Below, in pieces: positions 44,956-57,160 of a stretch of DNA of 64,000 nt. The notes below the pieces were generated by a model. The model was given only the letters and a program-made list of their open reading frames with translations, had not been told where the DNA came from and did no database searches. The stretch's first letter is position 1. Every line of letters begins with the position of its first letter. Made by a program: the position numbers and the translations under genes. This DNA is from an uncultured Planctomycetaceae bacterium (GTDB taxonomy: Bacteria; Planctomycetota; Planctomycetia; Planctomycetales; Planctomycetaceae): assembly GCA_963813715.1 (NCBI GenBank), contig CAWFAK010000007.1, forward strand, positions 224,001-288,000. The letters run 5' to 3'.

Positions 44956-47900
44956 ATGGAAATCCAAAACGAGCGGATCGCCCGTCTGTCTCCCGCGAAG
45001 CGAGCGCTGTTGGAAGCCCGCTTGCGGCAGTCGCGCACCGCTGCGCCGATCGGCGCGATTCCTCGTCGCAATCCCGACGAGCCGGCGGTCTGCTCGTTCG
45101 GTCAGCGGCGGCTCTGGTTCCTCGAGCAGTTGGAACAGGACCTGGCGGCCCACAACGTGGCTCACGACGTCCACATTCGCGGACCGCTCGAGGTCGAGTG
45201 CTTGCGACGCGCGCTCGAATCCATCATCCACCGCCACGAAGTGCTCCGCACGGTGATTCGGGCCGACGGAGGCGAGCCGGCTCCTTTTGTGCTGCCGCCC
45301 GCACGGTTCGAGCTGCCGATCCACGATCTGCGGCATCTCGACGGATCGTCTCGCGAAATCGAATCCGAGCAATTGGGCACGGCCGACCGGAACCGTCCGT
45401 TTCGTTTGGATCGAGACCCGATTCTCCGTGCGTCGCTGCACATCCTGGGCGACGAAGAATTCTTGCTGGCGATCACCATCCATCACATCGCATCGGACGG
45501 CTGGTCGGGAGCCATTCTCTCGCAAGAGCAGTGGGCGTTTTACGAGGCGTTCCGTTGCGGCGAGCCCCCCACACTGGAGCCGCTGCCGCTGCAGTACGCC
45601 GATTACGCCGCTTGGCAGCGCGAACGGCTGCAGGGAGAGCGACTCGAAAGTTTGCTCGGATTCTGGCGGACGCAGCTGCACGATCTCACCGTCCTGCAAT
45701 TGCCGACTGATCGTCCCCGGCCGACGCGGCCCACGTTTCGCGGGCAGCTCGTCGAGTTCGATGTGGCTCCCGAAGTCGTTAGCGGTCTCCGCATGCTGAG
45801 CGCCGAGGCCGACGCCACGCTCCACATGACGCTACTCACCGCGTTCGCCGCTCTGCTCGCCCGCTACTGCGGCCAGTCCGAGGTTCCGATCGGCGTGCCG
45901 TCCGCGGGGCGGATGCGCCCCGAGCTGGAGACGCTGATCGGTTACTTCGCGAACACGCTGGTCATCCGCGCCGACCTGTCCGGCAATCCGAGTTTCCTCG
46001 CAATGTTGGAGCGGGTGCGAACGACTTCGCTCGCGACCTATCAGCACGATGAACTGCCCTTCGAGCGGCTCGTCGAGGAGCTTGACCCCCAACGGTCGCT
46101 CGATCGCAACCCGCTCGTGCAAATCCTGTTTCAGCTGACCGATTTCGTCCGCCCCGAATCGCGCGTCGGCCCGCTCGTCTGCACGCACGACAGTCCGCGC
46201 CACCAGGCATCCCGCTTCGATCTGCAGCTCGCCGTGCGACCGGTGGGCGAAGGCCTGCGCGGGCAGCTGCTGTATGCGGACGATCTGTTCGACCCGCCGA
46301 CCGTCGACCGCTTGATTGGCCATTATCAAACACTGCTGCAGGGAATCGCCGCCAATCCGGACGCGCGGCTCGACGAGTTGCCGATCCTCACTGAAGTCGA
46401 GCGAAGCCAGTTGCTCGTCGAGTTCAACCAGACACAGCTCGACGTCCCCCGCGGTCCGGCAGGGCAGTCGCTCGGCGTCCACGAGCTCTTTGCCGCGCAG
46501 GCGGCCCGAACGCCCGACGCCCTCGCCGTGGACGACGGTCAGGTCAAACTCACCTACGCCGCTTTGAACTCGCACGCCGAACGGCTGGCCGCCCGCATGC
46601 GAGCGGCCGGCGTGGCAGTCGAGTCACGCGTGGGAGTCGTCGCCGAGCGGACACCGGAGATGGTCGCCGCTATCCTGGCGATCTGGAAGTCCGGTGGCGC
46701 GTATGTCCCTTTGGATCCCCGCTTGCCGCAGGAGCGACTCGATTTCCTGATCGACGACACGGGCGCCTCCCTCATCGTCGGCAGCCAACCGTTGCCCCTG
46801 TCTCGCTCGAATGTCACGTTTCTGGATTGGAGCGATGTCCGATCGGCTCCCGCTTCGGATAGCGACGCTTCGCTGAGTGACGACGGGAGTGCCGCGGGCG
46901 AACGACTCGCCTACATCCTGCACACGTCCGGCTCGACGGGCACTCCGAAAGGCGTCGGCGTCGTCCAGAGTGCCATCGTCAACATGCTCACGTCCGTCCG
47001 AGAGATCACGGGCTTCTGCGCGGCCGACCGCGTCCTGGGACTGACCACGTTGTCGTTCGATATTTCGGTCGTCGAGACGATGCTGCCGTTGATCACCGGC
47101 GGTGCGATTCGGCTGGTCAACCGGGACGACGCGCTCGACGGCCGTCGGCTGCGGGCGATCGTCGAGAGCGCACAGGTGACGTTCCTGCAGGCCACGCCGG
47201 CAACCTGGCGGATGCTCGTGCAGACGGGCTGGCGGGGATCGGCAGGGCTCAAAGCGATCACGGGCGGCGAATCGCTCAGCCGCGAGCTCGCCGACCAGTT
47301 GCTCGACCGCGTCGACACTCTCTGGAACATGTACGGCCCGACGGAAACGACCGTTTATTCCACTGCCGTCAAAATTGAACGCAACACGCCGATCACGATC
47401 GGGCGGCCGATCGGCAACACGCAGGCGTACATCCTCGACGGCTCACACAACCTGGTGCCGATCGGCATTCCGGGCGAGTTGTATCTGGGCGGGGCCGGAC
47501 TGGCCCGAGGGTATTGGAACCGCCCCGAGCTGACGGCCGAGCGGTTCGTCCGCAATCCGATTCAGCGACGAGCCTGCCGACCGACTCTACCGCACGGGCG
47601 ACGTCGTCCGTTGGCGACCCTACGGCGAGATCGAGCTGTTGGGCCGGGCCGATCAGCAGGTCAAGCTCCGCGGCTTTCGCATCGAGTTGGGAGAAGTCGA
47701 GTCGGTGCTCAGTCGGCATCCCACCGTCGCGCAGGCCGCGGCCAGGATCTGCGACGACGGCACGAACGATCCGCGGCTCGTCGCCTATTTCGTTCGCGCG
47801 ACAAGTGGGGCAAACGGCAGCGGTTTGGTCCTCGACGCGTCGGCCCTCCGCAGCTTTTTGAAGTCGAAGCTGCCCGACTACATGGTGCCTGCCCTACTCG

Positions 47901-49168
47901 TGGAGCTGCCGGCGCTGCCGCTGACCGGCAGTGGCAAGGTGGATCGCAAATCGCTGCCCGCCCCAACCACAGCCATAGCCACAGCGGCTCCCGCGGCCGA
48001 CCCGTCACCGATCACCGCCTCGACGCTGGACGACGTCGTCGAACGCGAGTTGGCGGCGATCTGGCGACGGCTGCTCCGCGTGCCGCTCGTCCGTCCCGAC
48101 GACAGCTTCTTCGACTTGGGTGGGCATTCGCTGTTGGCCGTGCAGATGCTGGCCCAGGCGGAAAAACTGTTCGGCAACGCGCCGCCCTTGCGAGCGATCT
48201 TCGAACGGCCGACCCTGGCCGAAGCGGCCGCCGCGATCCGCTCGCGGCAAACTCGCACGGCCGTTCCGACCATGCGGCTGCGGTATGAGCCGGCCGATCC
48301 ATCGCACGCACGGAAACCTCCACTGATCATTGCCCCTTCGTTGTTCGGTCACTCCAACGAGTGGGATCCGCTGCTCTCCGCGCAGCCCACCGATCGACCC
48401 ATTCACGGCCTGGAGGTCGACGGCGACGAACCTTATTGGAGCGACGCTCCCAGCCTCGACGAGATGGCCGATCGCTTCTGCGATTCGGTCTGTCTCGCGC
48501 TGCCGGAGGGGCCGTTTCATCTCGCTGGTTACTCGTTCGGCGCATGGCTGGCGTACGCGATGGCCTGCCGTTTTGCCGAGCTGGGCCGCACGCCCCTCTC
48601 GGTCATCCTGGTCGATTCGCAACTGTGGCGGCGCCCGCGCTCGTGGCGCGATCGAATCATGCGGGACGTCCCCTCGATGATTCGCAATGTTCCCCGCTGG
48701 TTGGCGAACAAACTCGACGCGGGATCGCTGCTGGGAGCCAGCGATCACGTCGCCCGACGTTGGACGTCCTCACAAAGCGGGCGAACGACTCGCATGCTGA
48801 TGACGGGCAGTCAAACGAACGGTCACACCAACAGCGAGATCGACGCGGCCATCACGCGCGCGTCGGGCGTCTTCGACCTCGACAAGTTGCCCGAGCTTTA
48901 TCGCCGCCGAATGATTCTGAGCTTTCGGGCCCAGGCCGCCTACGAGCCGCGACCATTCCGCGGCAGGCTCGCCTATTTGCAGTGCCAGGTTCGCCCGCTC
49001 GTTCACCGCAACCTGACCGATGGCGGCTGGCGGACGCTCGTGACCGGGCCCGTCGAAACGCATCGCATTCCCGGCTCGCACTCTTCCGCCGTCAACGGCC
49101 GCTTCGCTCCCGAGGTGGCGGCGGTGCTCTTTCGCGTGATGGATCAGGCCGAAGCGGCCGCGCGCTGA
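44956..49168 (+). CDS. Single-module NRPS C-A-T-TE; +1 frameshift at about 47560
   Basis: HHIASDG (C); HTSGSTGTPKG, YGPTE, LYRTGD after removing one A, GKVDRK (A); FFDLGGHSL (T); GYSFG (TE). Confidence 0.9.
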
Positions 49169-49352
49169 ACCGTATGGCGCGCTGCAACGCCACTGGCAAT
49201 GGACCGGCCGGCCGCTCGCCAAGAACGCGATCCGAGGCTAGGATCCAAGGCGTCATTTCTGCGGGCCGAGCTCCTTTCTGCAAAACGAGCGGCTTCCGAT
49301 TCGGGGGCCTGAGCAACCCCAGACGTACGCCAGGGGCCACGAGGCAACCTCC

Positions 49353-50618
49353 ATGAGCAACGACTACGGATACTCCCCCCGCGGCGGCATCCGCTTGCTG
49401 CCGATTTTGATCGCCGTGGTGCTGATCGGCATTACTTTCGCCCGCGGCTGCCAGCAGGGGCCGTTCGGCCGCAAGCAGCTCGTTGGGATGGGACCGGAGC
49501 AGGAATCCAAGCTCGGCGCACAGGCCTACTCGCAGGTCCTCTCACAGTCGCACGTGAGCGCCGACGCGCGCACGACCGACGTCGTCCGCAAGCTGGCGGA
49601 GGACCTGGTGACCGCCTCGCGCGATCCCGAATTCGTGCGTCAGACCGGCCTCAAGCCGCCCGACTTCAAATGGGAGTGCAACGTTGTCGAGAGCAAGGAG
49701 GTGAACGCGTTCTGCCTGCCGGGGGGCAAGATCGTCGTTTACACCGGCATCTTGCCTGTCGCGCAAACGGAGAACGCGCTGGCGGCCGTGATGGGACATG
49801 AGATCGGCCACGCGCTGGCCCACCACGGAGCCGAGCGGATGGCTCAACAGCAAGTCGTGCAGATCGCTGAGGGGGCCGCCGCCGGCGCCTTCTCCGACAT
49901 GGACCCGCAGCGCCAGCAACAAGTGCTTGCCATGATGGGCATGGGCAGCAAGTTTGGCGTGCTCTTGCCCTTCAGCCGCAAACACGAATCCGAGGCCGAC
50001 CGCATCGGCCTCTTGTTGATGGCGGCGTCTGGCCGCGATCCGCATGCGGCGATCGATTTTTGGAAGCGGATGGCCCAGATGAATAAAGGTCAGCCGATGG
50101 AGTTCATGTCGACGCATCCGAGCCACGAGCGGCGGATCGCCGACCTCGAGGCGCACATGGACGAGGCGATGGCCTTGTACGATCGGGCCCCGAAGAAAAT
50201 CCCCGATCAGCCGTTGCCGGGAATCTCGACGGCGCAGCTCCCGTCCGACACGACCTCCGATCGCAATTCGCTCGTGCAGAGTCCGACCACCGCAAGAAGG
50301 CCGACCGAGAGTCCGACGCAACCGCGTTCGCGTCCCACGGTTCCCCGCAAAGTGCTGCAGGTGCTCGATTATGTCCTCGAGCACAATCAGGCTCCGGAGG
50401 GTTACGAGGGGGGCCGCGAGTTTCGCAACCTCGGCACGGGGGGCGACCAGTCGCTGCCCAACTTCGACAACAAGGCCAACACCATCCGCTATCGCGAGTG
50501 GGACGTGAATCCACACGTCGCCGGCAAGAACCGCGGTGCCGAACGACTGGTGACCGGATCGGACGGACGCGCCTATTACACGGCCGATCACTATCGAACC
50601 TTTTTGCGGATTCGCTGA
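49353..50618 (+). CDS. M48 zinc metalloprotease fused to a C-terminal barnase/RNase Sa-type ribonuclease
   Basis: NAFCLPGG, HEIGH, ESEAD, STHP (M48); S/T/P linker; GG..F.N, YREWD, NRGAERLV, YYTADHY (RNase). Confidence 0.88.
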   Translation: MSNDYGYSPRGGIRLLPILIAVVLIGITFARGCQQGPFGRKQLVGMGPEQESKLGAQAYSQVLSQSHVSADARTTDVVRKLAEDLVTASRDPEFVRQTGLKPPDFKWECNVVESKEVNAFCLPGGKIVVYTGILPVAQTENALAAVMGHEIGHALAHHGAERMAQQQVVQIAEGAAAGAFSDMDPQRQQQVLAMMGMGSKFGVLLPFSRKHESEADRIGLLLMAASGRDPHAAIDFWKRMAQMNKGQPMEFMSTHPSHERRIADLEAHMDEAMALYDRAPKKIPDQPLPGISTAQLPSDTTSDRNSLVQSPTTARRPTESPTQPRSRPTVPRKVLQVLDYVLEHNQAPEGYEGGREFRNLGTGGDQSLPNFDNKANTIRYREWDVNPHVAGKNRGAERLVTGSDGRAYYTADHYRTFLRIR

Positions 50619-50620
50619 CC

Positions 50621-51115
50621 ATGGACGTGCACTCTCTGTTTCGGGCGGCGCCCCCCTTCTTGCACCAGTGGGCCGCGCCGCTCCCGCAGGCGTACGAATT
50701 CGCCTGGTCGATCCAGCAGTCTCCGGGGCGTCTGGCCGTCGTGCGGGCCATTCGCGGAGCCAAGTCGCGCTCCGCCAGCGACTTGTTCGACGAGATCGGA
50801 GCGGCCCTGCAGCTGCCCGATTATTTCGGCGAGAATTGGAACGCCCTCTCCGAGTGCCTGACCGACCTCGAGTGGCTGCCGGGCGACGCCTACCTGCTCG
50901 TCGTCACCCAGAGCGAATTGCTGCTCGACCGGGAGCCGAACGAGTTGCCGACCCTGCTGAAGGTGTTGGAAGGCGCGTCCCACGACTGGGCGACGGCCGA
51001 AGATTCGCAAGAGAATGCGCGCCCCTTTCATGTCGTGTTTCAAGCGGAAGCTGCCAGCGCGGCCAAATTCGAGGCGAGGGTCCGGGCGACCGGACAAACG
51101 CTCGATCCGCTTTGA
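50621..51115 (+). CDS. Barstar family ribonuclease inhibitor
   Basis: LFDEIGAALQLPDYFGENWNALSECLTDLEWL; starts 2 bp after the RNase stop. Confidence 0.9.
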   Translation: MDVHSLFRAAPPFLHQWAAPLPQAYEFAWSIQQSPGRLAVVRAIRGAKSRSASDLFDEIGAALQLPDYFGENWNALSECLTDLEWLPGDAYLLVVTQSELLLDREPNELPTLLKVLEGASHDWATAEDSQENARPFHVVFQAEAASAAKFEARVRATGQTLDPL

Positions 51116-51166
51116 GATCCGGTGCCCCCCCGCCCAGCTTTGCCTCGAAACCCCGGCGGCCGGTAG

Positions 51167-51233
51167 CGTAGGGCAAGCTGCCAGCTTGCCCCTGTCTCAC
51201 GCTTAGTAATGGCAAGCTGGCAGCTTGCCTACG
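51167..51233. repeat. REP-like repeat family C, inverted pair
   Basis: CGTAGGGCAAGCTGCCAGCTTGCC (51167-51190) and GGCAAGCTGGCAGCTTGCCTACG (51211-51233). Confidence 0.85.
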
Positions 51234-51357
51234 TGCGACCAGCGGATGCCCGTGGGGTAGGTGGCACGTTGCTCGGCGGAGAGCTACAAAAATGGTTGGA
51301 GGTGCCGCGCACGAGCGCTGGCTGCCTTCCTTTCGACAGGTGCTTGAGGGACAGGGC

Positions 51358-53690
51358 GTGGCCGGCGATCAATCTTCCAAGCCGAACAAGTCGCAGTCCG
51401 AGCCGATCTTCGCCGACGGCTCGGAATCGCCCAACGCGCAGACGCGGCTGACGGATTCCACCGACTCTCCGTCGGGCGCCGCCCGCAGCGCGACGCATCA
51501 AACGCCCCAATCCTGGATCGGCCGCGACATCGCCCGCTACAAGGTCATGGAATTGCTCGGCATGGGGGCGATGGGCGTGGTCTACCGCGGCTTCGACACG
51601 CTGATCGAGCGCGACGTCGCCATCAAGATCCTGCCCGCGGAACTCGCCGGCGACAAGTCGACGCGCGACCGCTTCCTGGCTGAAGCCAAGTCGGCCGGGC
51701 GACTGACGAATCCGCACGTGGTCGCTCTGCACGAAATCGGCCAGCAAGGGCAGACCGATTACATCGTGATGGAGCTGATGAACGGCGGCAACCTGGCGCA
51801 GATCATGCAGCGGTCCGGCGCTTTCTCGCCCGAGGAAGCCACGCGGATCGTGGCCGACGCGTGTCAGGGTCTGGCCGCCGCGCATGCCGCCGGCATGATC
51901 CACCGGGACATCAAGCCGAGCAACCTGCTGCGAAATGCCGAAGGGGCCGTGAAGCTCGCCGACTTCGGGCTGGCCAAGCGGACGATCGGCGCCGGCCAGC
52001 ATCTCACGCTGACGGGGCAAGTCGTCGGCACTCCCTATTACATGAGCCCCGAGCAGTGCCAGTCGAAGACGCTCGACGCCCGCAGCGATATCTATTCGCT
52101 CGGCGCGACGTATTACAGCCTGCTCACCGGCGTGACTCCCTATCACGACATCGAGAGCACCGTGCAGGTGATGTTCGCGCACGTTCACGGCGATCCGCTT
52201 GATCCGCGCAAGATCAATCCGGCCATCCCCGAAGCCTGCGCCGGGTTGTGGCCCGGGCGACGGCGAAAAAGCCGGACGACCGTTACCAGTCGGCCATGGA
52301 GATGTATGCCGATCTGTCGGCCGCGCACGTCGCCATCGGCGGCCGCCCCTTCAGCCTGCACGGCTCGGCAATTGGCAGCGCTTTGGCGTTTCAATCGGCG
52401 TCTCAAGTTCGTCGCGCCCGCAGACGCTGGCGGCTGCCCGTCGCGCTCGTGTTTGCAGCGGCCGTCGTGCTGCTCGGCGCGTGGGGCGCGTGGCTCGGCC
52501 TGCGCCCGCATGTTCCGATTGCCGGCACGCCGCCGCAGGGTGACGGCCAGCCGGCGGTGACGGCTCCGCTGGCGCAGGGCGTCACCGATTCGACGATTAC
52601 GTTCGGCTGCACGACCTCCTATTCGGGGACGAATCAGCAAGTCGGCCAGAACTTTGTGGCCGGTATCCGAACGGCGTTCGACTCGATCAACGACCAGGGG
52701 GGCATCAACGGCCGCAAGCTGAAGCTGATCGTCCTGGATGACGGCTACGAGCCCGATCGCGCCTTGGCCAATATGCGCGACTTGTACGAAAGGCGCAAGG
52801 TCTTCGCGATCGTGGGGAATGTCGGCACGTCCCCGGCCGAGAAAACCGCTCCCTACGCGATCGCCCACAAGCTGCTGTTATTCGCGCCTTGCACGGGCGC
52901 CGCTTTCTTGCGACCCGAACCTCCCGACCGCTACATCTTCAATTACCGGGCCAGCTACGCGGAGGAGACGGCGGCCCTCGTCGATTACTTCGTCAAGGTG
53001 CGACGGATCCCGGCCAATCGCATCGCCGTCTTTGCCCAGAACGACGCGTACGGGGAGGACGCCTTTCAAGGAGCGGCCCGCGCGATGCGGAAATTCGGCG
53101 TGCTCCCCGAACAGATCCTCCGTGCCGGCTACGAGCGCAACACAATACAGGTCCACGAAGCAGTCGACACAATCGTGAGTCACCGCACGAAGATCGACGC
53201 CATCGTCATGGCTCCCACCTACGGGGCGGCGGTCCTCTTCGTGAAGGGGCTCAAAGACCGGAACATGAACGTGGCGCTGGGCGCCCTCTCACTCGTCGGC
53301 GGCACCAGCCTCACGGGGCTGTTTCAGGCCACGGGCCCCCAATATGGAGAGGGGCTCATCGTTTCGCAGGTCGTCCCGCACTATCTGTCGGGGGCGACGG
53401 GCGTCATTCACTACCGGGAGTTGCTCCACAAGTATCATCCGGAAGTGGAGCCCGGCTTCCTCTCGCTCGAAGGCTTTATCGCCGCCCAGTGCCTGGCCGA
53501 AGGGCTCAAACGCGCCGGCCAAGAGCTGACGACTGAAAAACTGATCGACGCGCTGGAATCAATTCGCGACCTGGATCTGGGCATCGGCCCGATCATCAGC
53601 TTCGGCCCCTCACGTCACGAAGCCTCGAACAAAGTCTGGGGCACGGTTCTCGACCGCGAGCGGAACTTCCAGAATCTGGACCTCGAATAG
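51358..53690 (+). CDS. Ser/Thr protein kinase-TM-type I periplasmic binding protein fusion; frameshift near 52245
   Basis: GMGAMG, VAIK, HRDIKPSN, DFG, GTPYYMSPE; a second frame continues the kinase (ARATAKKPDDRYQ), then a TM and GGINGRKL.L...DDGY Leu-binding-like domain. Confidence 0.85.
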
Positions 53691-53734: not shown

Positions 53735-55631
53735 CTAGCGGCCCGCGAGCGACAGCCGGAACGCGACCATTTCCTCACCGTTACGGGCGAGTAGCACGTC
53801 GCCGGCCAGCACCGGGTGGTTCCAGGTCTTCCCTTCGATGGCCGGGACCTTGGCCAATTCCTTGAACTCGTCTGGGCTCGCCGAACGAGTGCGAGCCCCC
53901 CTTGCTCCGACAGCACCAAGAGCAATTGTTGTTCGGACAGCAGGATCAATTGGCCATGGCCGTAGCGGCCCCCCTTCCAGCTCCGCTTGCCGTCGGCCAG
54001 GTCGATCGAGGCGAGGAATCCGTTGTCGAAACCGTACGCATGCCCCGCGTGGATGACGAAGTCGTTGTAATAGGGCTTGAGCCCCTGCGAGGTCCAGCGG
54101 TCCTCGGTCGTCCAACCGGCCGGCCCGTGGGCAACCGCAACGCGGCGCACGCCGACGCCGCCGGCCATCCCGGATCCGCTGCCGATCAGCAAGTCGCCCT
54201 CCGCCGTGAGTGAGGGTTGCACGATGCCGTCGCTCTCCCAGTCGTACTTCCACAGCAGCGTGCCCGTTTTCGGGTCGACGCTGACCGCGCCGCGCTGTTG
54301 AGCAGCAAAACCTGCTTCACGCCACCGATGGTCACGAGCTGAGGCGAGCTGTAGCCGCCGCCCTCCCCTTTGGGGCCCAGCCAGCGCAATTTTCCGATGA
54401 CGAGGTCGTACGCGACGAGTCGGCCGGCCGTCGCCACGATCACGAGGTTGTCGACCACCAGCGGCGAGCCGGCAAAGCCCCACATCGGGAGCTTCGCGCC
54501 GGTGTCGGCCGCGGCGTTGTGCGACCAGGCGAACGCGCCGTCGCCCGCGTCGAGCGCGTTGACGAGGCCCGTGGCGCCGCAGGCGTAGACGCGATCGCCG
54601 TTCAGCGTCGGCGTGGCCCGCGGGCCGGCCCCGGCGTTCGACTCCCAGAATCGGGTGGGGTCGGCGTGTCTCCAGATCGGCTGGCCCGTGGTCACGTTGT
54701 AGCACGCGACGATTTCCTCTTCGCCTCGCTGCTCCTGCGTGTAGAGCAAGTCCCCGCGGACGGCGAACGACGACCATCCCGGCCCAACCAGCCGTCGCCA
54801 CAGCTGCACGGGAGGCGACTTCGACCAGTCGGTGGCGATCTTCACGCCCCGCACGATGCCGTCGCGCTCGGGACCGCGAAAGCCGGGCCAATTGGCGATC
54901 GCTTGCGGAGCGGCGGGTTGAGTGCTGGTCGTTTTGACTCCGGTCGATTTGGTGGCGGTCGTGCTCGCAACCGCGGTCGTCTTGTCGGTCGGCTTGGTGC
55001 CGCCCGCATTGTTCCGGGCGATTGCCGTGACAGCGCGTGGGGCCGGCGGGGCGAGCGCCGGCAGCGACGCCGGTTCGTTGCCCTCCATTTGCAAAAGCCG
55101 TTCTTCGGGAGTCGGCGTCCAGCGCCAATGCAGGTCGGAACGGCCGTCGCCGGAGATTCCGCCCGTGCGGACGAGCGTGAGCGCACCGCAGGCCAAGAGC
55201 AGCGTGACGACCATCGTGGGCCGTCTGATCCACCACGGGAAGGGGGATGTCGCCGCCGCCCAAAGCACCAAGGCCAGGCACAGCACAGGAATACAAAAAA
55301 TGGGCAGCATGAAGCCCATCATGCCGGTCGCGATCGACTTGTGAACGTAGAGTGACGCGGCAAACATCCCGCCGACCATCACCGCCAGCGCCCCGATCCG
55401 TTCCAGCCAGGCCGCCCGACTGAAAAACAGCCACCACACCACGACCGCCAAGCCGCCACCAAAGATTCCCCCCATGATCCCGAATAACGCGGCATCGGGA
55501 ATAAGCCGCGGGAGAAGCAGCCACGCGAACGACTGCAGCAGGACGATCACGACGCCGGGCCAAAGACGCAACGGCCTTGGCTCGGATCGCCCATCCTGGG
55601 CTCGCGGTTCGTCCACGGCAGAGGTCTTCAT
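53735..55631 (-). CDS. Membrane-anchored PQQ-binding-like beta-propeller protein; frameshifts near 54292 and 53885
   Basis: About four N-terminal TMs, WPGFRGP.RDG, GPRATP, WGFAGSP, GYSSP, KTWNHPVL. Confidence 0.85.
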
Positions 55632-55819
55632 CGGCCTGCCCTCCCCGAGTGCTTCAATCCCGAAAGCGTCCGCTTGAGTCGACGATTCGACGCCTGGACT
55701 CGACAATCTCCCTGCCGAACGACTCGCCTGCCCAGCGGGACCGTTTCCGTTCCTCGCGGAGCCTTGTTAGTCTCGACCCGGAATTCGTCGCTGGCCCGCA
55801 GTTATTCGCTACTGCCACC

Positions 55820-57160
55820 GTGGAGCTTAGATCGTGCGTCAGCGCCCTGGGAATTCTGATTGTGTTGCTGGCTGCCGTGATTGTGCCGGCCGGTTTGGTC
55901 CTGGCCGAGTCGCCGCCGCCTAAGAACGCCGCTCCGGCAACGTCGCCGGCCGCGCCGACGGGCCCGCGCTTCGACCCGGTGACGGCCACCGAGGCCTACG
56001 TCGCCCGGCTGACGCCCGAGCAGATCGCCAAGTCCGACTCCTACTTCGAGGGGGGCTATTGGCTGAAGCTGTGGGGCTTCCTCGTTTCGTCGGCGATCTC
56101 CGTGATCCTGCTGACGACGGGCCTGGCGGCGCGGATGCGGAACCTTGCGGAGCGCCTCATCCGCTTCCGCTTCGCGCAAGGGCCGCTTCGCACCCTGGTA
56201 TTTGGGGCCCAGTACTTCTTATTCACGACGGTTTTGAGCTTTCCGCTGGACGTCTATGCGGGATACTTCCGGGAGCACCAGTACGACCTTTCGAACCAGA
56301 GTTTGGGCGACTGGCTCAAAGATGCCTCGATCGGAGTGGCGGTGCTGGCCGTCATCGGCGGGATCGCGCTCATGGTGCTGTACGCGATCTTGGGCCGCGT
56401 GCAGAAGAGCTGGTGGATCTGGGCGTCCGTGGCCTCGGTGGCGTTCTTGTTCGTCGTCAGTTTGCTGGCGCCGGTTTACATCGCGCCCCTCTTCAACAAG
56501 TACAAAACGCTCGACGATCCCAAGATCCGCGATCCGATTTTGAGCCTGGCCCGCGCCAACGAAATCCCCGCCGACCGGGTCTACGTTTACGACGCTTCGA
56601 AGCAGACGAAGACCATCAGCGCCAACGTCAGCGGCGCGCTCGGGACGATGCGGATCTCGCTCAACGACAACCTGCTTAATCGCTGCAACCTGGCATCGAT
56701 CCGCGCGGTGATGGCCCACGAAATGGGTCACTACGTCCTCAATCACATCTACAAGGGACTGATCGAAATGGGCCTGGTGCTGACGATCGGCTTCGCCTTC
56801 GTCGCCTGGGGCTTCCAGCGGATCGTGGCCCGCCGCGGCGCGGCGTGGGGCATCCGCTCGATCGCCGACCCGGCCGGGCTGCCGCTGATCGTGCTGTTGT
56901 TCGGAATTTATTTCTTCGTCATGACGCCGGTGACCAACACCATCACCCGCACGGCCGAGATCGAAGCCGACGCCTTCGGCCTGAACGCCGCCGCCGAGCC
57001 CGACGGATTTGCCGACGCGTCCCTGCTCCTCTCGGAGTACCGCAAGATGCACCCCGGCAAATTGGAAGAGATCGTGTTCTACGACCACCCGAGCGGGTAC
57101 AACCGCATCCTGATGGCGATGACGTGGAAGGCCGAACACCCGAACACCGGCAGTCACTGA
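55820..57160 (+). CDS. M48 family (Ste24-like) integral membrane peptidase (start uncertain)
   Basis: PLFNKY, DAS..T...ANV.G, HEMGH, EIEAD.FG, YDHP. Confidence 0.9.
   Translation: MELRSCVSALGILIVLLAAVIVPAGLVLAESPPPKNAAPATSPAAPTGPRFDPVTATEAYVARLTPEQIAKSDSYFEGGYWLKLWGFLVSSAISVILLTTGLAARMRNLAERLIRFRFAQGPLRTLVFGAQYFLFTTVLSFPLDVYAGYFREHQYDLSNQSLGDWLKDASIGVAVLAVIGGIALMVLYAILGRVQKSWWIWASVASVAFLFVVSLLAPVYIAPLFNKYKTLDDPKIRDPILSLARANEIPADRVYVYDASKQTKTISANVSGALGTMRISLNDNLLNRCNLASIRAVMAHEMGHYVLNHIYKGLIEMGLVLTIGFAFVAWGFQRIVARRGAAWGIRSIADPAGLPLIVLLFGIYFFVMTPVTNTITRTAEIEADAFGLNAAAEPDGFADASLLLSEYRKMHPGKLEEIVFYDHPSGYNRILMAMTWKAEHPNTGSH

Follow-up and report, generated by a model that had tools for sequence, protein, structure and literature searches.

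An M48-type protease-ribonuclease fusion gene with an adjoining barstar gene, conserved in a genus of uncultured Planctomycetaceae

Gene organization at the locus

This study examined a 64,000-nucleotide window of an uncultured Planctomycetaceae genome (assembly GCA_963813715.1, contig CAWFAK010000007.1, positions 224,001 to 288,000), in which a gene joining an M48 metalloprotease domain to a barnase/RNase Sa-type ribonuclease (RNase) domain is followed directly by a gene for a Barstar-family inhibitor. The fusion gene is present in the list of open reading frames (ORFs) of the window as a single unbroken frame at positions 49353..50618, with an ATG start and 421 amino acids (aa) plus a stop codon, and is supported by Pfam, by congeneric genomes and by an independent 6.5-kb contig. 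Its TGA stop occupies 50616-50618 and the barstar gene (50621..51115, 164 aa plus stop; Pfam, alignment, synteny) starts with the ATG at 50621, leaving a gap of 2 nt; both genes and all of their parts described here lie on the forward (+) strand.

The encoded fusion protein begins with a putative export signal or anchor (residues 1-33, 49353..49451), in which a hydrophobic stretch at residues 15-30 is followed by Ala-Arg-Gly-Cys33. This is followed by an OMA1/BepA/LoiP-like M48 zinc metalloprotease domain (residues 45-290, 49485..50222; Pfam, NCBIfam, Foldseek), to which Peptidase_M48 (PF01435) matches over residues 96-267 with an E-value of 3.4e-40 and 138.3 bits (cut-off 20.3), the match extending over positions 16-184 of the 186-position profile. 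The domain contains the HEIGH zinc-binding/catalytic motif (H149, E150, H153; 49797..49811), identified by sequence reading and alignment, and, by alignment, H255-P-S-H-E-R-R261 (50115..50135), which corresponds to the H-P-x(4)-R motif that a preprint describes as the active-site plug of the M48 family (bioRxiv 10.1101/2020.07.30.230011). A disordered Ser/Thr/Pro-rich linker (residues 291-333, 50223..50351), recognized from composition, model confidence and substitution rates, leads to the RNase domain (residues 334-421, 50352..50615; Pfam, alignment, Foldseek), to which Ribonuclease PF00545 matches over residues 343-420 (E 9.1e-9, 36.2 bits against a cut-off of 24). These two domains were the only Pfam matches on the protein, with no Rhs, filamentous haemagglutinin, PAAR, LXG or other delivery domain among them.

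Across 38 aligned fusion proteins, the motifs of both enzymes are invariant, comprising HEIGH (149-153), HESEAD (211-216, with E212 or E214 as the downstream zinc-ligand Glu), STHP (253-256) and H255, P256 and R261 of H255-P-SHER-R261 in the M48 part, as well as YREWD (380-384), NRGAER (393-398) and YYTADHY (408-414) in the RNase part. An AlphaFold model of the monomer, built on the 38-row alignment, had a mean predicted local distance difference test score (pLDDT) of 66 and a predicted template modelling score (pTM) of 0.53, and gave no sign of a packed M48-RNase pair. With both domains confidently modelled, a linker pLDDT below 50 and this pTM, the M48 and RNase parts are predicted to fold as independent domains. 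In the linker, 22 of the 43 residues are Ser, Thr or Pro and residues 292-327 fall below the pLDDT of 50; its length varies from 31 to 50 residues across the 38 proteins. A promoter scan returned no promoter-like sites, and the five terminator-like sites returned by a terminator scan, all within the two ORFs and against 2.2 expected, are uninformative. The original prediction for this locus, made from the letters of the window, had described one ORF with an anchor, an M48 domain, a linker and an RNase domain and a barstar gene 2 nt further on, and the ORFs, Pfam matches and motifs agree with it in every detail.

Conservation and integrity of the fusion

Every one of the 11 genomes from other species of the genus carries the fusion, with identities of 65-96%. 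In nine of them the copy forms one frame from residue 1-3 to 421, and the remaining two copies are broken, one by a contig end and one by a TGA near the N-terminus. Among 25 genomes from other genera of the family, none carries the fusion and ten carry the M48 part alone (32-46% identity). A protein search with the linker and RNase returned dozens of clusters of 399-433 aa bearing both PF01435 and PF00545, and clusters with this pair of domains were recovered again with the M48 part as the query. Its repeated occurrence, in dozens of protein clusters and in each of the genus genomes sampled, puts the architecture far beyond chance.

Independent assemblies support the same structure. A 6,499-nt DNA contig from a separate soil study covers 49300-51200 with 13 substitutions and a sole indel, which is intergenic (51124), and a contig of another run is identical across 50091-50389, linker included; run X1 covers 50091-50534 only and informs that part of the locus alone. 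The 39 listed natural differences within both ORFs consist of 31 synonymous and 8 non-synonymous changes and no stops. Metatranscriptome contigs from two libraries bridge the M48 part, the linker and the RNase (49300-50413 and 49761-51200), the second continuing through the barstar gene; contigs from RNA libraries may contain DNA, and a single transcript is unproven by them. Substitution rates were estimated by the Nei-Gojobori method from eight orthologues (28 pairs; six sequences for barstar), giving median ratios of nonsynonymous to synonymous rates (dN/dS) of 0.17 for the anchor, 0.13 for M48, 0.69 for the linker, 0.15 for the RNase and 0.21 for barstar, values that are rough since synonymous sites are near saturation (proportion of synonymous differences, pS, about 0.6). 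The contrast of the domains with the linker is clear despite this roughness: purifying selection acts on M48, on the RNase and on the barstar, and the linker, in which no conserved site was seen, is relaxed.

An artefact or a decaying gene, in which a lost stop or an assembly indel joined two frames or in which the RNase is an inactive remnant, was also considered, as this assembly has frame breaks in both flanking genes (a nonribosomal peptide synthetase, NRPS, and a Ser/Thr kinase) and a genome completeness of 82.6%. This explanation was rejected, and its probability is judged to be close to nil, because eleven further genomes, together with independent contigs, have this open frame, none of the 38 proteins departs from the catalytic residues, the RNase is constrained (dN/dS 0.15) and the listed variants are free of stops. 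The fusion is genuine, as had been predicted, and no assembly artefact: the independent contigs hold no indels in either ORF, no stop or indel separates the two domains, and the search for the combined M48 and Ribonuclease architecture found it to be recurrent in the genus (11/11) and missing from the 25 genomes of other genera of the family.

The RNase domain and its barstar partner

Residues 376-421 align to positions 66-109 of binase/barnase and place E382, R394, R398 and H413 at the catalytic positions, in register with the WREAD, RNADRL and DHY motifs of those enzymes; all four are invariant in the 38 fusion proteins. In barnase these positions are numbered E73, R83, R87 and H102. The modelled domain consists of one helix and four strands (pLDDT 75-90), and Foldseek matched it to barnase and binase with target template modelling (TM) scores of 0.55-0.62 and a root-mean-square deviation of about 2.6. 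The guanine-recognition loop of this family has the consensus F-x-N-x-E-x-x-L-P, of which F357, N359 and L368-P369 are present, with four extra residues (GxGG) ahead of the acidic residue.

The 164-aa product of the downstream ORF (50621..51115) matches Pfam Barstar PF01337 with an E-value of 1.3e-25 and 89.6 bits against a cut-off of 23.4, and aligns to barstar positions 5-46. It belongs to a subfamily of 164-185 aa proteins that share a conserved extension of some 40 residues at the N-terminus; Y68, which is the Tyr that plugs the RNase site in barstars, and F69, G70, N72, A75, D82 and W85 are invariant in this subfamily. A barstar gene lies 2-5 nt downstream of the fusion in all 10 genus loci examined, two further genomes being outside this count. 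When RNase residues 328-421 were modelled together with the barstar, the complex scored an ipSAE of 0.77 against 0.01 for the best control; the mark used for this score was calibrated as attained by 116 of 157 solved complexes and by 2 of 215 mismatched pairs. Three runs shared at least 98% of contacts, with partner pLDDT of at least 88, and the modelled interface involves residues 355-362, 366, 382, 393-396 and 412-415 of the RNase and residues 66-70, 72-75, 77-78, 81-82 and 85 of the barstar. The modelled barstar covers the RNase active site in the manner of a textbook pair; the score is evidence of likeness to solved complexes, not of binding by this copy. Both the retention of catalytic residues and the close coupling of a cognate barstar, which the original prediction had proposed, are therefore upheld by the alignment to binase/barnase, the 2-nt gap, the Pfam match and the synteny in the genus.

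Protease domain, N-terminal signal and unfused relatives

The M48 core was modelled with pLDDT values of 86-95, residues 167-207 (the lid region) being of low confidence. Foldseek related the model to the Geobacter M48 peptidase 3c37 (E 1e-9, target TM 0.66) and to E. coli BepA (6ait), and NCBIfam returned partial matches below the cut-off to BepA (NF052400, 104 bits vs 570) and LoiP (NF052399, 66 bits vs 365). These scores place the M48 part in a subfamily related to BepA/LoiP, as an equivalog of neither. Profile, motifs and fold all match the M48 family, the active site is intact, and the domain is a predicted zinc protease.

Unfused relatives were surveyed through the best 80 loci of a scan of species-representative genomes. 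In 77 of these, the match was an unfused M48 protein at 40-53% identity, from Planctomycetota, Verrucomicrobiota, Nitrospirota, Bacteroidota or Gammaproteobacteria, and none of the 77 had an RNase or barstar within 4 kb; the other three were the fusion itself, in genomes already counted in the genus set, and add no independent support. Unfused M48 orthologues stop at about residue 290 of the query numbering, and four closer ones (P0193, P0199, P0201 and P0203, 64-76% identity) stop just past the PDxxLP tail, where the linker of the fusion starts. In most genus genomes, the M48 part is the sole copy of its subfamily detected at E<=1e-10. A second, unrelated M48 gene in the window (55577-57160, 527 aa) has several long hydrophobic stretches, an AHEMGH motif and a Ste24/HtpX-like look, and is the second-best PF01435 match of the genome.

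At the N-terminus, Kyte-Doolittle hydropathy averages 2.83 over the hydrophobic stretch LLPILIAVVLIGITFA (residues 15-30), which precedes an xRG-C-QQGPFGR motif; this motif, and with it Cys33, is kept in 37 of the 38 fusion proteins. The lipobox of bacterial lipoproteins follows the consensus [LVI][ASTVI][GAS]-Cys after a hydrophobic stretch, and the fusion proteins fit it with Ala, Val or Leu at -3, Gly at -1 and Cys33, but not with their Arg or Lys at -2. Unfused orthologues from Nitrospira and Bacteroidota carry canonical lipoprotein signals (LAGC, LVGC, VACS) whose Cys aligns with Cys33, and in both cases the Cys directly precedes a common PxTGRxQ motif; verrucomicrobial and gammaproteobacterial unfused forms have an uncleaved anchor in place of the lipoprotein signal. 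The nearest characterized relatives by profile and fold are the periplasmic BepA and LoiP. Since the unfused orthologues are widespread, end where the linker starts and have canonical lipoprotein signals in other phyla, homology suggests that the fusion protein is most likely exported and membrane-tethered, with its domains outside the cytoplasm. The envelope tethering through the M48 part that had been anticipated from the sequence is thus the most likely arrangement, in view of these orthologue signals and periplasmic relatives.

The RNase-barstar cassette on other carriers

The RNase and the barstar each occur in one copy in this genome. Sampling of the phylum recovered the RNase domain from only 7 of 400 other genomes, and 20 genomes of the same family gave no match; the seven matches comprise simple anchor-linker-RNase proteins, one RNase with a lipoprotein signal and two Rhs-RNase toxins, and a barstar was detected beside five of them. 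The two Rhs-repeat proteins (L093 and L095, from other Planctomycetota) end in the same RNase family, with a barstar downstream of L093, and are classical polymorphic toxins, which show what else this domain is used for in the phylum.

A metagenome scan with the RNase alignment yielded 80 loci, in all of which the RNase is C-terminal and in 70 of which a same-strand barstar match comes next. The 33 metagenome ORFs of at least 195 aa were assigned by Pfam to 4 M48-RNase proteins, 12 dienelactone hydrolase (DLH)-RNase proteins (barstar downstream in 8 of these 12 loci) and 17 proteins without another Pfam domain. A WXG100-RNase protein (P0089) and tandem RNases behind a signal peptide also exist. 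Because the RNase is always C-terminal, with the barstar next and the carriers varied, the RNase-barstar cassette behaves as a 3' module that joins genes for exported proteins, and M48 is one carrier among several.

Several of these architectures merit description in their own right. The signal peptide-DLH-RNase fusion (P0074-P0120; L136, L139, L143, L146, L151, L158, L161, L163 and L173-L176) recurs in other Planctomycetota, for example Gemmataceae; a printed description of it was not found, no search having been aimed specifically at these fusions. Among the secreted proteins with tandem RNase domains, P0015, P0035, P0039 and P0046 have a first copy with other residues in place of the catalytic Glu and His (YRTWDV, PDDYRTF) and an intact second copy, and the first may be a pseudo-enzyme or a binding module. 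An apparent tandem-RNase plus barstar protein (P0053, 441 aa) has a degenerate junction and looks like a frameshifted read-through, not a true fusion.

The number of M48-RNase unions was addressed with a quick tree of 193 RNase domains and a careful tree of 62 rows. In the former, the M48-linked domains form one clade with a Shimodaira-Hasegawa-like approximate likelihood ratio support (SH-aLRT) of 100 and 48 rows (45 bearing the M48 label, the other 3 being fusion fragments), with the exception of P0072, a 341-aa, 57%-identical M48-RNase protein from a single contig that has no guanine-loop insertion. In the careful tree, the P0072 RNase falls within the DLH-linked clade with support of 95/86, and a single M48-RNase origin was not rejected by an approximately unbiased (AU) test (p = 0.125), in which the group was named after the tree had been seen. 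The source lineage of P0072 was absent among 400 sampled genomes of the class. P0072 may represent a second, independent M48-RNase fusion.

Neighboring genes

Upstream of the fusion, the NRPS gene (44956-49168) is spread over the frames 44956..48288 and 47639..49168, which overlap; its syntenic counterpart at locus L001 is one unbroken ORF, and the break near 47.6 kb points to an assembly indel or a pseudogene. Downstream, a Ser/Thr kinase gene with a periplasmic-binding domain (51292-53690) also occupies two overlapping frames (51292..52560 and 52248..53690) and is a single ORF in L001 (786 aa) and L003 (784 aa). The occurrence of two such breaks within 8 kb suggests that the assembly contains indel errors. 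Just past the barstar gene lie two copies of a 19-nt palindrome, GGCAAGCTGNCAGCTTGCC (51172-51190 and 51211-51229), which has 16 sites in the genome against 0 for a reversed control pattern and looks like a repetitive extragenic palindromic (REP)-like intergenic element or a terminator hairpin.

Comparison with known systems

The locus resembles barnase-barstar and RNase Sa pairs in the RNase fold, in the catalytic Glu/Arg/Arg/His, in the adjoining inhibitor family and in the logic of an exported RNase with a cytoplasmic safeguard, the inhibitor here being modelled on the active site. It differs from these pairs in that the RNase lacks a dedicated signal peptide and forms the C-terminal domain of a 421-aa anchored protease, that the 164-aa barstar bears the N-terminal extension of about 40 residues and has Asn74 and Glu78 at the acidic DxxxD motif (given for barstar in Zhang et al. 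2012, PMC3482391), and that the guanine loop has its 4-residue insertion. Stand-alone OMA1-like, LoiP, YcaL and BepA proteases provide the counterpart of the M48 part, which is an orthologue of widespread proteases 265-345 aa long (45-76% identity), either lipoproteins or anchored, and shares with them the HExxH motif, the Glu and the HPx4R plug; in contrast to these enzymes the fusion has an extra 130 residues (linker and RNase) past the normal C-terminus, and unlike BepA it has no tetratricopeptide repeat (TPR) domain. The DLH-RNase fusions have the layout in common (signal peptide, enzyme, linker, C-terminal RNase of the same clade, barstar), but their carrier is an alpha/beta hydrolase and not a metalloprotease. 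Polymorphic toxins with releasing peptidases, as presented in the accessible text of PMC3482391, are alike in having a C-terminal barnase-type domain, a downstream immunity gene and an in-chain zincin-type peptidase, whereas the peptidase here is M48 and repeats, a delivery domain, tip variation and orphan cassettes are all missing; the term 'M48' occurs 0 times in that accessible text.

Full-text searches, which did not extend to subscription journals, found no paper on a natural M48-RNase fusion, and the one paper containing both 'M48' and 'barnase' was unrelated. Databases hold dozens of copies under automatic names such as 'Zn-dependent protease with chaperone function/guanyl-specific ribonuclease Sa'. 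The suggestion that the architecture had not been described therefore holds for the literature searched, but the architecture is not unseen, as it is already present in the databases. All of the parts are from well-known families, and their union is a new arrangement that is catalogued only by automatic annotation.

Interpretation and alternative explanations

Considered together, the results lean, with a little better than even probability, towards a pair of the barnase-barstar type, with export and tethering of the RNase provided by a resident envelope protease, both enzymes located outside the cytoplasm and the barstar protecting the cytoplasm. In its origin, an RNase-barstar 3' cassette would have joined the end of an M48 gene, directly after the C-terminal PDxxLP tail, in the ancestor of one uncultured soil Planctomycetaceae genus, and the RNase, having no signal peptide of its own, would now ride on the resident envelope protease. 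The 421-aa product would leave the cytoplasm via its N-terminal signal and stay membrane-bound, by a lipid at Cys33 or by an uncleaved helix. Facing the periplasm or the exterior, it would present two mutually independent enzymes: the OMA1/BepA/LoiP-like M48 zinc protease, still performing its ancestral function, and, at the end of a flexible linker some 40 residues long, a guanyl-preferring endoribonuclease. The barstar, translated from its start 2 nt past the fusion stop, would remain cytoplasmic and plug the active site of RNase domains that fold before export. The data show the anatomy, the conservation and selection, the fusion point, the modelled fit of the barstar and the occurrence in metatranscriptome libraries; topology, enzymatic activity and the use of the RNase are the inferred parts of this reading.

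Under the same reading, the M48 part is most simply an export and anchoring carrier, and a retained housekeeping role is suggested by the widespread stand-alone orthologues and by its being mostly the sole subfamily copy in the genus genomes. Cleavage of the linker to free the RNase is possible and compatible with this arrangement, which does not require it. As a best guess, the RNase would serve extracytoplasmic RNA breakdown for nucleotide or phosphate salvage; this use is likelier than attack on other cells, because there is no delivery domain, no tip polymorphism and no match to a defence system (PADLOC-DB 2.0 anti-phage models returned 0 families for the fusion protein or the barstar at E<=0.01). 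The competition or anti-phage role raised in the original prediction accordingly found no backing.

Several observations weigh against this reading. In two of the ten genus loci (L106 = G411 and L107 = G404), the barstar frame breaks beside an intact fusion gene, and if these breaks are real and not assembly errors, those species tolerate the loss of barstar; both assemblies consist of few contigs at low completeness, and the breaks may be long-read indels or real decay. The query barstar has Asn74 and Glu78 at the positions of Asp35 and Asp39 of the Bacillus barstar, where its relatives mostly have D...E, and the pass of the complex model may reflect memory of barnase-barstar structures. The closest non-M48 (DLH-linked) relatives have the plain form of the guanine loop and not the 4-residue insertion. 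The residue at -2 of Cys33 is Arg or Lys (ARGC, VRGC, LRGC, VKGC), which is atypical for a lipobox, and the positive charges after the helix (R31, R40, K41) are as many as those before it, so that the positive-inside rule alone is undecided. Finally, salvage and antagonism were not told apart by any data in this analysis.

The N-terminal features just named could also be taken to indicate a cytoplasm-facing, membrane-tethered module of the toxin-antitoxin kind, in which the helix would be oriented N-out/C-in, protease and RNase would both lie on the cytoplasmic side and loss of a labile barstar would unleash the RNase. The charges past the helix, at least as many as those before it, the atypical lipobox and the tight coupling of the barstar to the fusion gene are in keeping with such a module. 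It is nevertheless judged highly unlikely, considering that orthologues with canonical lipoprotein signals align at Cys33, that the nearest characterized relatives BepA, LoiP and YcaL are periplasmic or outer-membrane proteins, that all other architectures of the RNase clade begin with a signal peptide or an anchor, and that PADLOC gave no matches. Delivery of the RNase into neighboring cells as a polymorphic or contact-dependent toxin tip, with the barstar shielding kin, is regarded as extremely unlikely. The gene order of toxin followed by immunity gene agrees with it, as do the barnase domains that tip Rhs and WXG100 toxins in this phylum (L093, L095, P0089) and the listing of Tox-Barnase with Imm-Barstar in planctomycetes by Zhang et al. 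2012 (PMC3482391), yet the protein has only a Sec-type N-terminal signal and no delivery domain in Pfam, the fusion ends in this same RNase in each of the 11 congeners, and there are no orphan cassettes, the conserved Ser/Thr kinase coming next in the window and in L001-L003, where downstream DNA was read. The toxin-tip idea also fares poorly in that 0 of the 120 nearest M48 relatives listed bear a different C-terminal Pfam domain.

A self-releasing RNase toxin, in which the M48 part, as a dedicated releasing peptidase, would cut the linker in cis or in trans and the soluble RNase, set free into the periplasm or the medium, would act on competitors or on extracellular RNA, is unlikely but has several points in its favor. 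The disordered linker of 31-50 residues is long enough to reach the protein's own active site, the M48 relative BepA removes its own C-terminal tag according to bioRxiv 10.1101/2020.07.30.230011, the zincin 'PVC-metallopeptidase' is listed as a processing protease with Tox-Barnase in Zhang et al. 2012 (PMC3482391), and the position of the P0072 RNase in the DLH-linked clade (95/86) hints at a repeated M48-RNase union. However, the linker has no conserved site (dN/dS 0.69), the M48 part is an orthologue of a widespread stand-alone enzyme, and the separate origin of P0072 was not established by the AU test (p = 0.125). The same RNase cassette is found equally often on DLH, plain anchors and other carriers, so that a protease is not needed, and the DLH carrier in particular weakens the idea that the protease would serve RNase release. 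These non-protease carriers and the unconserved linker suggest that release was not the reason for the fusion. An extended form of this idea, which appears doubtful, is that M48 envelope proteases are an unrecognized class of self-processing RNase-toxin carriers that would hold the RNase at the envelope and, on a stress or contact cue, cut their own linker to launch it in soluble form, the union having arisen at least twice; were this true, the two unions (the main clade and P0072) would imply a functional reason for pairing protease and RNase.

Conclusions

At present, the locus constitutes a tidy annotation result and no new mechanism. If the linker is processed by the protease, the fusion would offer a compact natural model of protease-gated enzyme release, with an M48 protease and its substrate in one polypeptide, which would be helpful as the substrates of most M48 lipoproteins are unknown. 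The fusion indicates that a barnase-barstar cassette can shed its own signal peptide and leave the cell on an unrelated resident enzyme, and that such a fusion can remain fixed throughout the radiation of a genus. Together with the hydrolase-RNase fusions, it suggests that the RNase-immunity cassettes of Planctomycetota are mobile 3' modules and may represent a simple precursor of polymorphic toxin architecture.

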